This document shows, in pieces, positions 2,029-6,352 of a stretch of DNA of 6,352 nucleotides. Made by a program: the position numbers and the translations under genes. Under the pieces are notes generated by a model, which was given only the letters and a program-made list of their open reading frames with translations, had not been told where the DNA came from and did no database searches. The DNA is from a virus (taxonomy: Duplodnaviria; Heunggongvirae; Uroviricota; Caudoviricetes), in the IMG/VR virus record IMGVR_UViG_2690316285_000017; one strand, written 5' to 3'. Numbering within the stretch: the first letter of the stretch is position 1; each line of letters begins with the position of its first letter.

Positions 2029-2058
2029 TTGACATTAGTCTTTGAAAATGCTAATATT
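2029..2058 (+). promoter_or_regulatory. Sigma70-type promoter P1 (TTGACA-N17-TAATAT)
   Basis: TTGACA at 2029-2034, a 17 nt spacer, TAATAT at 2052-2057; about 50 nt upstream of the ATG at 2109. Homologous to P2 over about 65 bp. Confidence 0.6.
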
Positions 2059-3920: not shown

Positions 3921-3985
3921 TGGAATTGGTGATTATCTGTTTTGTATTGATTGGTATGATTGCAGGTGCATCTATTAAAGTATAA
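3920..3985 (+). CDS. Candidate 21 aa hydrophobic micropeptide (MELVIICFVLIGMIAGASIKV), translationally coupled
   Basis: ATG overlaps the upstream TAA as TAATG (3918-3922); SD-like gaaggtgg 7 nt upstream; the product is almost entirely hydrophobic. Very short, so it could be fortuitous. Confidence 0.25.
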   Translation: MELVIICFVLIGMIAGASIKV

Positions 3986-4009
3986 ATGTTACCAATCTGT
4001 TAAAAGCTG

Positions 4010-4038
4010 TTGACAGACAACCTTGAGCATGACATAAT
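4010..4038 (+). promoter_or_regulatory. Sigma70-type promoter P2 (TTGACA-N17-CATAAT), a paralogue of P1
   Basis: TTGACA at 4010-4015, 17 nt spacer, CATAAT at 4033-4038. The upstream ATGTTAC-N5-TGTTAAAA elements and the downstream TGTATATAT are conserved with P1. Confidence 0.6.
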
Positions 4039-4045
4039 TGTATAT

Positions 4046-4192
4046 ATGGGGGAGAGCAATTCTCTCTTATTTTTTCTTTCAATAATCCGATGGATGGATA
4101 TTCTGAGTTTGAAAGGTGCAATGCTTTTCGTCCTAGCCTTTCAGGTTGGTCTGAGAGGCTATCTCAAAAAGTCTTTGTTCATTCATTATTGA
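4046..4192 (+). CDS. Candidate leaderless small hydrophobic protein (48 aa); alternatively this stretch is the body of a ~190 nt small RNA
   Basis: ATG at 4046-4048 lies 7-8 nt after the P2 -10, where transcription is expected to start (leaderless). Product MGESNSLLFFLSIIRWMDILSLKGAMLFVLAFQVGLRGYLKKSLFIHY. TGA at 4190-4192 is followed 16 nt later by an intrinsic terminator. Confidence 0.3.
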   Translation: MGESNSLLFFLSIIRWMDILSLKGAMLFVLAFQVGLRGYLKKSLFIHY

Positions 4193-4207
4193 ATCCTTTA
4201 CAGCTTT

Positions 4208-4235
4208 GCCCTAATCATGAGTTAGGGCTTTCTTT
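4208..4235 (+). terminator. Rho-independent terminator
   Basis: Stem GCCCTAA (4208-4214), 7 nt loop, TTAGGGC (4222-4228), then TTTCTTT (4229-4235). Confidence 0.6.
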
Positions 4236-4304
4236 AAGAGTTTTTAAACAGAGCTTTTAAAGAAAGTTTTCCTGAAACTTCGTTAACGTTATAAGCAAAC
4301 CTCC

Positions 4305-4339
4305 AAAGCCCTTCACAGATTATGTTTAGGGCTTTTCTT
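4305..4339 (+). terminator. Second terminator-like hairpin
   Basis: Stem aGCCCT (4307-4312) pairs with AGGGCt (4328-4333) across a 15 nt loop, followed by ttttctt. The stem resembles that of the hairpin at 4208-4235. Confidence 0.35.
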
Positions 4340-4408
4340 AATAGAGCATCTTTAATAAATCGTTAAGTCATCTTCTAAGTGTATTGGCGTTGAAGGTGCT
4401 CTATTAAG
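4337..4408. repeat. Perfect 12 bp inverted repeat (cttaatagagca ... tgctctattaag) separated by 48 bp
   Basis: Arms at 4337-4348 and 4397-4408, directly upstream of the SD/ATG of the gene at 4436; the first arm overlaps the U-tract of the preceding hairpin. Confidence 0.8.
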
Positions 4409-4435
4409 AAATAACCACACTTAGAGGAAATTATA

Positions 4436-5146
4436 ATGACAAACGATTTATATATTAACGGTAAAAAGGTTGATAGCTTCGGAGACTGGTCACCACAGGG
4501 TGAACATCCGCTACATACTATTCAGCGTCAAGAGCATGACAAGCGCATTGAGCTTGAGCAAGAGCTAAAGATGTCACCAAAGGTAATTTCCTTTGTGTCT
4601 CCTGAGCCTCAAGAAATGCCTGATATCTGCAAAACTGAAGCACTATTTGAGCTTGAGCGTGAATATTACCCAGCTTTAAAATCACAGCGTCTTAGACTTG
4701 ATGTCGCTTACGATGCTGTTAAGAACTTCGAAGAAACCTCGAAACCTTCAGAATATGATATTGCTTACGAGATTAAGTCAAACCCGTTTATCTATTATGA
4801 AGGAAACTTTAATGATGGTTTTGGTACAGCGATTGAAGACGTTCCTAAAGTTCTTCAAAGTATCCCTGAAGGGTTCCGGTTAATTGATGTCAGACAAGCA
4901 TTAAGGGGTTCTGGTCAATTTATTCTGATGACTGATAAAACAGATGAAGAGATTCTTCAGTTAGCTGAAGCTAATTTGACTAAGCATTATTCCGGTAAAC
5001 TGGATAAGTTAAAGCAAAAGCTTAAAAAAGAACTTGATACTATGAAAGAACTTGTTAGTGAATATGAGTCGCAGAAGAAGATTGCTTTGATGGCTGATAT
5101 TGAGCAGTTAACGAAGATTTCTCAGAAGTATAGCAAGGCTGTTTGA
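4436..5146 (+). CDS. Hypothetical protein (236 aa)
   Basis: SD gagga 8 nt upstream of the ATG; long ORF with no nested competitor of comparable quality; no motif recognised. Confidence 0.7.
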   Translation: MTNDLYINGKKVDSFGDWSPQGEHPLHTIQRQEHDKRIELEQELKMSPKVISFVSPEPQEMPDICKTEALFELEREYYPALKSQRLRLDVAYDAVKNFEETSKPSEYDIAYEIKSNPFIYYEGNFNDGFGTAIEDVPKVLQSIPEGFRLIDVRQALRGSGQFILMTDKTDEEILQLAEANLTKHYSGKLDKLKQKLKKELDTMKELVSEYESQKKIALMADIEQLTKISQKYSKAV

Positions 5147-5534: not shown

Positions 5535-6335
5535 ATGGCACAATTTAAAGTTGATGATTTTCTGATTGAGTTAAGTTTTAACTCTCAGAAAGTTTTAAAA
5601 GGCTTGGAAAAAGCCGAGAAACAAACGATGCAGGTAGCATCACGAATTGAGAAGCGATTGAATAAGTCGTTTAGAGTTAATCCTACGCCTTTAAATGATT
5701 CTCTCAAACTAATGGAAAGAAATGTCGATAAAACTGTTTCCAAGATTGAGCAGCGTCTTAAAAACACTAGAGCGTTTAAGATTAAAACTGAAATTGAGGA
5801 TACTTTAAAGCCACTTAGACAACCAAGACAGCCACGAATTAGCGGAAGCAGAGCAATCACAGCAGCTTACTCAGCGAATATGAGCAAGCTTCGTGACTTT
5901 AATCCTATGCTTGAGAAGTATTTTAAAAGCCAGTATTACAGCTTAAGCAGTAAATCCAAGACACTTGGAAACGAAACTTTTAATCGTGAGTTAGCAAAGT
6001 TAAATCAGTCTCTTCGTGAAACACTTTCTAAGTTTAACAAGACCACCAGCAAAAATAATCACAGTGAAAATGCTTCAAATAGTCTGGATGTATTAGCTAC
6101 GAGTGCAATCAAAGCAGGTACAGCCATTTATAGTTTTCAGACAGCCTTAGAAGCTTACAGGCGGATTATGGAGGTTGGTCTGAAAAAAGAAGCATCACAA
6201 CGAGCGGCACAATTCGTTTTAGGTGATGAAGGTGCTAAACGAGCTACAGAATTTGTTAAGAATCTTGCTGATAGTAGTGGTGTAGACCAGATTGAAACAT
6301 TAAGCAGTTTTGCTAAGTTTGAAGTGGCACACTGA
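5535..6335 (+). CDS. Hypothetical protein (266 aa), K/S/T/N-rich and probably largely helical
   Basis: SD aagaggtg 9 nt upstream of the ATG; a long ORF that ends with TGA inside the window; no family recognised from sequence. Confidence 0.6.
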   Translation: MAQFKVDDFLIELSFNSQKVLKGLEKAEKQTMQVASRIEKRLNKSFRVNPTPLNDSLKLMERNVDKTVSKIEQRLKNTRAFKIKTEIEDTLKPLRQPRQPRISGSRAITAAYSANMSKLRDFNPMLEKYFKSQYYSLSSKSKTLGNETFNRELAKLNQSLRETLSKFNKTTSKNNHSENASNSLDVLATSAIKAGTAIYSFQTALEAYRRIMEVGLKKEASQRAAQFVLGDEGAKRATEFVKNLADSSGVDQIETLSSFAKFEVAH

Positions 6336-6352
6336 ATTTGGCCACCTGAACA

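Follow-up and report, generated by a model that had tools for sequence, protein, structure and literature searches.

How might the tail operon in the viral record IMGVR_UViG_2690316285_000017 (IMG/VR; Caudoviricetes) be controlled by the structured segment that lies directly in front of its first gene, and does this segment act as DNA or as RNA? The whole stretch of DNA analysed here, called the window below, is 6,352 nt long, and the segment in question occupies its positions 4305–4435, upstream of the gene at 4436 which encodes a protein of 236 amino acids (aa). The initial annotation, made from the letters of the window, had described a terminator-like hairpin at 4307–4333, followed by a perfect 12-bp inverted repeat (4337–4348 and 4397–4408, arms 48 nt apart) ending 15 nt before the Shine-Dalgarno (SD) sequence of this gene. 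It had considered such a repeat very improbable by chance, and had proposed attenuation or antitermination of read-through or, instead, a protein-binding palindrome. The hairpin is present (arms 4305–4317/4323–4335, a stem in RNAfold and the tract TTTTCTT), and the distance to the SD sequence is as described, with GAGG at 4424–4427. The repeat was correctly placed but understated, since it is perfect over 15 nt and extends to 23 pairs when it is read as RNA. The features that carry the following argument are these.

4334–4356, + strand: 5' arm of the long hairpin (LH), pairing with 4389–4411, with compensatory changes across lineages
4357–4388, + strand: apical region of LH with anti-start-site sequences, 4371–4382 (UCUUCUAAGUGU) against the SD region and 4355–4364 (AUAAAUCGUU) against codons 3–6
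4389–4411, + strand: 3' arm of LH, with pairing and compensatory changes as for the 5' arm
4417–4451, + strand: translation initiation region of the 236-aa gene, with the loop target 4417–4428 including the SD motif GAGG (4424–4427), the ATG at 4436 and a second complementary stretch at 4442–4451
4436–5146, + strand: first gene of the operon, 236 aa, followed by a 69-aa open reading frame (ORF) and the tape-measure gene

The 12-mer at 4337–4348 (CTTAATAGAGCA) is the exact reverse complement of 4397–4408 and forms part of the perfect 15-nt repeat 4334–4348/4397–4411, which the repeat search extended to 22 nt at 91%. As RNA, 4334–4356 and 4389–4411 make 23 consecutive pairs, 20 of them Watson-Crick and 3 G·U, and the hairpin as a whole is 77–78 nt long with a tip loop of 6–9 nt. 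The improbability of the repeat is borne out by 2000 dinucleotide shuffles of 4300–4440, in which a perfect inverted repeat of at least 12 nt arose 4 times and one of at least 15 nt once. Moreover, no inverted repeat reached 15 nt in 60 shuffles of the whole window, and the unshuffled window has no other inverted repeat of at least 14 nt within 150 nt. The predicted fold of 4300–4445 has an energy of −49.7 kcal/mol (z = −7.3 against shuffles).

Homologous leaders were taken from E. coli genomes, one other Escherichia genome, viral contigs and metagenomes. The resulting set of about 100 distinct sequences divides into four lineages, between which the stem sequences have little in common.

Lineage A (the window): 5' arm UUUCUUAAUAGAGCAUCUUUAAU, stem of 23 bp
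Lineage B (L015, L023): 5' arm (UA)UUCAG(C/U)UUUUAAAAAGCAUACUUGGCA, stem of 27–29 bp
Lineage C (L030, L031): 5' arm CAAUUCAUAAAAGCACACUUGGCAG, stem of 24–30 bp
Lineage E (L108): 5' arm UUUUCGUCAAGUACACUUGGUAGCU, unrelated to the other arms, 24 of 25 positions paired

Despite this divergence the pairing is kept. RNAalifold, run on 31 distinct sequences, finds the hairpin independently, and 11 of the 24 predicted pairs are changed on both sides with pairing preserved. In the 20-bp core of the same 31 sequences, 99.2% of the cells are paired and 8 pairs carry two-sided changes, with a covariation score of 0.36, compared with at most 0.135 when the 3' partners are slid along; none of 500 shuffles reaches 0.36. 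An anchor-based table likewise gives pairing at 23 consecutive positions. Furthermore, the stem pairs that depart from Watson-Crick are all G·U when read on the + strand and would be A·C on the opposite one, and this argues for an RNA or single-strand structure and not for a palindrome of double-stranded DNA. Judged from these sequence patterns, LH is a conserved RNA structure of the + strand, with the caveat that the compensatory changes go back to a few lineage splits and not to many independent events. A pattern scan of viral contigs for TCTTCTAAGT...CTTAGA proved too permissive (120 unrelated matches) and was disregarded.

What the earlier reading overlooked is a complementarity between the apical region of LH and the SD and start region of the gene behind it, which points to translational or antisense-type control. 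In lineage A, the stretch 4371–4382 (UCUUCUAAGUGU) is complementary to 4417–4428 (ACACUUAGAGGA), which holds the SD sequence, and 4355–4364 (AUAAAUCGUU) is perfectly complementary over 10 bp to 4442–4451 in codons 3–6; the resulting interrupted duplex comprises about 26 bp, covers positions −19 to +16 and has a predicted energy of −26 to −28 kcal/mol. In lineage B, CUCUUCUAAGU forms 11–12 perfect pairs with ACUUAGAAGAG. In lineage C the loop and the SD region both differ from those of the other lineages and yet match each other (UUCACCUCU with AGAGGUGAA), with extra pairs in codons 2–8 (AGAC/GUCU and UGUUCA/UGAACA), and the downstream protein is only 23% identical to the 236-aa protein. In lineage E, 26 bp are paired, including the AUG of yet another N-terminus. 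Thus, the four lineages have 9–12 bp of complementarity at the SD sequence and 22–26 bp over the start region, which is what is expected of an anti-SD element.

This complementarity is specific to the lineage. In a cross-lineage matrix the cognate duplex of loop and start site ranks first or nearly so (−21 to −26 kcal/mol, compared with −11 to −17 kcal/mol between A, B and C), and cross-talk occurs only where the SD region is shared. When the loop was subjected to 1000 dinucleotide shuffles, the observed energy was never reached in A, in C (L030) or in E, and was reached by 5–38 of the 1000 in B and some chimeras. In 7 of 8 representatives the cognate duplex is also more stable than the one formed with any of the 65 other 54-nt windows of the gene, and the 10-bp core of the loop-SD pairing is kept in 85–90 of the 90 distinct leaders of lineages A, B and E. 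A search of the window for complements of the loop or of the arms found local ones only. The conservation of this complementarity implies a second state, in which the loop meets the start region.

The hairpin and the SD sequence are also inherited together. Similarity to the window can stop exactly at the junction between the terminator-like hairpin and LH, as in L030 of lineage C, which is 98.6% identical over 4190–4336 and then diverges, and other loci match the window only from 4363 or from 4423 onward. In L120, L122, L123 and L125, a lineage-B hairpin with its SD sequence precedes genes of the lineage-C type. The recombination breakpoints therefore lie at the junction of terminator and hairpin and between the SD sequence and the ATG, and consequently a unit of about 100 nt, which begins with the terminator and stops shortly before the ATG, behaves as a cassette. 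Leaders upstream of it are combined freely with different hairpin lineages.

In front of LH lie a promoter-like site and up to three terminator-like hairpins.

4010–4038, + strand: sigma-70-type promoter-like site, TTGACA, 17 nt, TG-n-CATAAT (11/12 consensus matches, extended −10 TG)
4046–4070, + strand: hairpin at the leader's predicted 5' end, with a T-run behind it in the window (match of the terminator-like scan)
4208–4264, + strand: terminator-like hairpin 4208–4228 and 15-bp hairpin 4230–4264 (terminator scan, fold and direct repeat)
4305–4339, + strand: intrinsic-terminator-like hairpin T3, stem 4306–4312/4327–4333 with an inner 3 bp, U-tract TTTTCTT at 4333–4339

T3 combines a GC-rich stem-loop with a U-run directly behind it on the transcribed strand, the features by which intrinsic terminators are defined, and looks like such a terminator of the + strand. 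Its stem, AAGCCCU/AGGGCUU followed by UUUUCUU, has arms at 4305–4317/4323–4335 in the repeat search, and RNAfold pairs 4306–4312 with 4327–4333. A GC-rich hairpin stands immediately 5' of LH in every leader type. The stem sequence differs in some loci (UAGCCCU.../AAUAGCCCU...), and in others the loop carries insertions of 10–30 nt that extend the stem. At least 5 T among the 8 nt after the stem are found in 86 of the 103 distinct leaders, and the U-tract doubles as the start of the 5' arm of LH. As to the promoter, the −35 and −10 elements of the site at 4010–4038, about 400 nt upstream of the start of the 236-aa gene, are kept in all aligned loci, and this site is probably the source of the leader transcript. 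The initial annotation had named an independent promoter of the gene at 4436, together with arm mutations that leave expression unaffected, as the outcome that would speak against its proposal; between T3 and the ATG, no sigma-70-like promoter passes a modest threshold (4+4 hexamer matches) in 92 of the 103 distinct leaders. Given the conserved promoter and the lack of an internal one in these leaders, the mRNA of the 236-aa gene is most likely made by polymerase that has read through one to three terminator-like hairpins (4046–4070, 4208–4228 and 4305–4339).

Considering these observations together, we propose that a two-tier leader, consisting of a terminator gate and of a lock formed by the anti-start-site sequence on the hairpin, controls the tail operon, a reading to which we give about an even chance of being right. 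In this model the segment 4305–4435 would be the 3' part of a structured 5' leader of about 390 nt. T3 would stop most of the transcripts that start from 4010–4038, and the operon would be expressed only by read-through or antitermination. The RNA that reads through would form LH at 4334–4411, with a lower stem of 22–29 bp and a loop bearing the anti-SD and anti-start sequence, and the hairpin with the SD sequence would be a self-contained cassette that sets the translation level of the first gene. Ribosome binding would be blocked whenever the loop is paired to the start region. Such pairing could be reached by partial opening of the stem, by removal of the 5' arm, by a factor binding one arm or by cleavage with RNase III. 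The most economical of these routes may be that RNase III cuts the stem of 22–29 bp, so that the apical piece is detached and then pairs with the start region. The stem offers the two or more turns of nearly uninterrupted double-stranded RNA that characterise RNase III substrates (23 bp in A, 27–29 bp in B, 24–30 bp in C and E), and is probably one of them. The structures, their conservation and covariation, the lineage-specific complementarity and the lack of an internal promoter are observations, while termination at T3, cleavage by RNase III, the repressive direction of the effect and the trigger are inferred.

Several points weigh against this model. In every lineage the minimum-energy fold is LH (−34 to −46 kcal/mol) with the SD sequence and the AUG unpaired, so that the state predicted by default is not one of sequestration; in a constrained fold that withholds the 5' arm, the loop does pair with the start region (−18 to −28 kcal/mol). 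The linker from the stem to its target has 4–6 nt in A and B and up to 15–22 nt in C. By our geometric estimate, once the full stem has formed, the linker of 4–6 nt in A and B seems insufficient to bring the loop, at the tip of a helix of about 30 bp, to the SD sequence in cis, and thus a compact pseudoknot is unlikely there without opening of the lower stem. Inside lineages A, B and E, the loop-SD helix is conserved and changes on one side only, from U-A to U·G, with no double compensatory change, so that the covariation argument for this helix holds at the level of lineages, of which few are independent. Furthermore, pyrimidine-rich loops pair fairly easily with purine-rich ribosome sites, and the duplexes of B and some of C stand at only about 0.5–4% in the shuffles. 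Finally, the U-tract of T3 is weak in 16 of the 103 distinct leaders, which have a TATTCAG tail.

Among the other explanations, one keeps the loop as an antisense element and moves its action in trans: LH, or its tip as released by RNase III or another nuclease, would be a stable small antisense RNA acting on the operon start, including that of co-resident or incoming copies. Encoded in front of its own target, it would then serve as an RNA 'immunity' factor, as in P1/P7 c4 and P4 CI, with the loops as specificity types. An anti-start-site sequence at the tip of a stable hairpin with a loop of 6–9 nt is classic antisense design, the specificity of loop and start follows the lineage, pairing in cis with the full stem looks sterically strained, and the element occurs in up to 3–4 copies per genome with a hairpin of 77–78 nt. 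We nevertheless regard this explanation as unlikely, for neither a promoter nor a terminator bounds an independent small RNA, and the regulator and its target would come 1:1 from one transcript. In addition, an Rfam scan of the whole window at E ≤ 1 gave no match of any family, C4 included, and there is no conserved 3' CCA-like signal for RNase P, with ACCA following the stem in lineage A only. A bolder form, which we think quite unlikely as one joint claim, is that the cassette constitutes an RNA 'immunity type' system, whose excised tip (probably produced by RNase III) silences the tail operon of the resident and of related incoming islands until a helper phage overrides it. It would be functionally analogous to P1 c4 and P4 CI, evolutionarily unrelated to them, and would belong to a previously undescribed family of satellite-like islands that carry tail genes. 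Decidedly unlikely in our judgement is that LH only serves RNase III processing or mRNA stability between the leader and the mRNA, with a loop/SD complementarity that has no function. Uninterrupted, AU-rich duplexes of 22–29 bp are of the kind cut by E. coli RNase III, for example in the T7 early mRNAs and the lambda N leader, so the stem suits this explanation, as does the minimum-energy fold that leaves the start region free. What it leaves unexplained is that four divergent lineages each have a loop that best matches their own start, and that the hairpin and the SD sequence are inherited jointly.

The attenuation that the initial annotation had envisaged, where alternative pairing of the inverted repeat decides whether the terminator forms, is improbable. 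A terminator-like hairpin does adjoin the repeat and shares its U-tract with the 5' arm of LH, and the stems 4208–4228 and 4306–4333 are cross-complementary. The 3' arm of LH, on the other hand, is transcribed only once the polymerase is past the termination point, and no competing pairing with the terminator covaries. The cross-complementarity, the only pairing seen to compete with the terminator stem, is trivial since the two stems are duplicates, and many loci lack 4208–4228. Because upstream leaders and hairpin lineages assort independently, a co-adapted pairing between them, and with it an attenuator, is disfavoured; in addition, the small ORF at 4321–4365 is not conserved. From that proposal the read-through part is retained, with its upstream promoter, its terminator features and the lack of an internal promoter, and the alternative terminator/antiterminator fold is not. 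Action at the level of DNA, as an operator palindrome (the other suggestion made for the repeat), a recombinase or invertase site or a cruciform, appears highly improbable. The long perfect arms and the two serine recombinases encoded by the island (see below) would fit it, but only the + strand shows G·T at the wobble positions, the arms remain paired although their sequences are completely different from one lineage to another, and all of the approximately 100 distinct sequences carry the 34-nt spacer in one orientation, which speaks against an invertible switch. It is extremely improbable that the minus strand yields an antisense RNA covering the start site and the hairpin: a promoter-like site does exist at 4458–4430 (10/12 matches), but most other leaders have A-rich or different sequence in place of its −10 element (ATTATA, 4430–4435), and no conserved minus-strand terminator accompanies it.

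The two-tier leader can be compared with known systems (the Rfam family C4 corresponds to c4/CI). P1/P7 c4 and P4 CI resemble it in that the leader contains a structured RNA of about 77 nt, which precedes its target on the same transcript in a temperate phage or satellite and has a loop complementary to the ribosome-binding region of the downstream gene; in our case, the loop at 4355–4382 lies 35–60 nt upstream of 4417–4451. They differ from it in that the present element matches no Rfam model, folds into a single long hairpin and not into a cloverleaf-like structure, and lacks a conserved end signal of the RNase P type. In the preQ1-II and SAM-II riboswitches and in the repA/repZ leaders of IncB/IncI-alpha plasmids, the loop of an upstream hairpin is likewise complementary to a sequence at or next to the downstream SD sequence. 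Unlike these loop-SD pseudoknots, the element described here has a stem of 22–29 bp and a linker of 4–6 nt, with no ligand-pocket nucleotides conserved between lineages. The pseudoknot of IncB and IncI activates translation and leaves the SD sequence uncovered; moreover, neither a conserved counter-transcript promoter (4458–4430) nor a conserved leader peptide (4321–4365) is found here, in contrast to IncB/IncI-alpha.

A long near-perfect stem in a 5' leader just upstream of the ribosome-binding site is shared with the lambda N leader, the T7 early mRNA sites and the rpoS leader, and by analogy with leaders processed by RNase III, cleavage would alter the access to the start site. In the rpoS type, however, the anti-start-site sequence is a strand of the stem, whereas here it lies in the loop. 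The late control of lambda (PR', tR' and Q) is similar in that a strong conserved promoter is followed by one or more terminators before structural (tail) genes, for which read-through is needed; it is dissimilar in that neither a Q-like protein nor a qut site was identified here, and the hairpin of the translational lock has no lambda counterpart. Hence the module does not fully answer to the definition of any of these classes, be it anti-SD leaders, loop-SD pseudoknots, c4/CI, RNase III leaders or gating of the lambda type. We class it with the structured leaders that are encoded in cis and combine a terminator with an anti-SD element; its unusual feature is that the loop of a long stem, instead of the stem itself, carries the anti-SD sequence. 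Support for the RNA structure is good, the mechanism is one that we infer, and its general principle is familiar.

The leader (4190–4560) was matched in 444 of 5426 complete E. coli genomes (about 8%), with full length in 277, and also in gut metagenomes. It thus adds an RNA structure supported by covariation and without an Rfam family, located at the control point between the early genes and the tail operon of an uncharacterised island. If the pairing of loop and start is functional, this would be a compact and tractable case of joint termination and translational gating in an element resembling a phage satellite, and the module would offer a handle for finding the inducer of the island. The cassette-like exchange of hairpin and SD sequence between elements would be modular evolution of a regulatory RNA.

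Further structure is found in the upstream part of the leader. The whole putative leader (4045–4445) folds with z = −8.6 and its segment 4195–4445 with z = −8.8. The stem of the hairpin at 4046–4070 is kept with altered sequence in other loci (GGAAGAGC..., AGAGAGAATTGCTCTCT), and its T-run is not conserved; a 5' stabiliser hairpin is therefore as likely as a terminator. In the pair of hairpins at 4208–4264, the direct repeat between 4222–4240 and 4326–4344 makes this part look like a degenerate or truncated tandem duplicate of the module of terminator and long hairpin. This pair is present in some leader types only, and because it is absent from the short leader type (L022–L029), it lies outside the conserved core; its patchy presence indicates recombination or duplication at GGGC-T-run junctions. 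Another leader hairpin was seen at 4134–4161 (TAGCCTTTCAG...CTGAGAGGCTA), where the stem sequence varies by locus with pairing kept, as in the counterparts ATGACCTCT...AGAGGTCAT and TAGCCTATTTAG...CTAGATAGGCTA. This varied but paired stem suggests that the whole leader of about 390 nt may be a structured RNA, possibly a small RNA that ends at a terminator.

Between the two hairpin modules lies a nearly invariant block at 4265–4305 (TTTTCCTGAAACTTCGTTAACGTTATAAGCAAACCTCC), absent from the short leader type (L022–L029), which holds an 8-bp palindrome CGTTAACG (4281–4288) and an anti-SD-like CCUCC (4300–4304). Three other candidates for regulatory pairing or coding in this region were set aside. 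In the predicted fold CCUC (4300–4303) pairs with the SD motif GAGG, a pairing of only 4 bp that is absent from several leader types and was not relied on. Pairing of the conserved upstream motif GAAAGGUGC with the 5' arm works in lineage A only, though the motif is conserved everywhere. A leader peptide was considered for the 14-codon ORF at 4321–4365, whose ATG lies in the terminator loop, and other lineages have this ORF in shortened form or not at all.

The window is AT-rich (about 37% GC) and had no close match among 50,697 phage records and a plasmid set, except for an end of the insertion sequence IS911 at 6317–6352. It was matched on the chromosomes of 744 of the 5426 complete E. coli genomes, where the intact element is an island of about 10 kb whose insertion site varies among chromosomes, for example yciI/tonB in strain A0 34/86 and ymdF/wrbA in SLK172. 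The island begins with a small serine recombinase, followed by about 2 kb without annotated genes and by five or six small genes including one for an HNH endonuclease; then come an intergenic region of about 515 nt, the tail operon and a large serine recombinase. The terminator and LH stand at the 3' end of this intergenic region, directly 5' of the 236-aa gene. In intact copies the tail operon encodes the 236-aa protein, a protein of about 70 aa, a tape measure (Pfam TMP_3) and a Dit-like distal tail protein. The last 36 nt of the window (6317–6352) are identical to the end of IS911 (IS3 family), and because of this insertion the tape-measure gene, which starts at 5535, is broken off after about 266 codons here, compared with about 690 aa in intact copies.

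The gene set of the island, about a dozen genes in L001 and L002, includes the TMP_3 tape measure, the Dit-like protein and two serine recombinases, and no capsid, terminase or other tail gene is annotated among them. To our knowledge, this set differs from those of P4, PICI, cfPICI and PLE. The island resembles a phage satellite, and it may be an undescribed type of tail-modifying satellite or defence island; no description of the island or the leader was found in the literature searched. Searches with the 236-aa protein against Pfam, PHROGs, NCBIfam, PADLOC and PDB profiles assigned it to no family, and tblastn gave no match for it among the 50,697 phage records. Its C-terminal third has a coiled-coil-like appearance. 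In many genomes RefSeq (PGAP) labels it 'transposase', a label that is without support and appears to have been propagated without basis.

Two other regions of the window deserve mention. The first, 155–2109 (about 1.95 kb), has no annotated gene in related RefSeq copies, and its conservation equals that of the coding parts (84–91% identity to L001 and L002). Within it GC climbs to about 47% at 1500–1950, and divergent promoter-like sites are found at 2022–1993 (minus strand, 11/12 with TG) and 2029–2057 (+ strand, 10/12 with TG). An unannotated ORF of 110 aa with a hydrophobic segment lies on the minus strand at 1638–1970 and begins just downstream of the minus-strand site, and the minus-strand fold of 1400–1990 has z = −3, with no Rfam match. 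This region could hold a missed gene, a large non-coding RNA or a control region of the island. The second is a 21-codon hydrophobic ORF on the + strand at 3921–3986 (MELVIICFVLIGMIAGASIKV), which abuts the stop codon of the upstream gene as TAATG. In other loci a small hydrophobic ORF of different sequence, for example MGLIIAWTALGLFVGCWVGNTVNKN, occupies the same place, and the ORF may encode a small membrane peptide overlooked by annotation.

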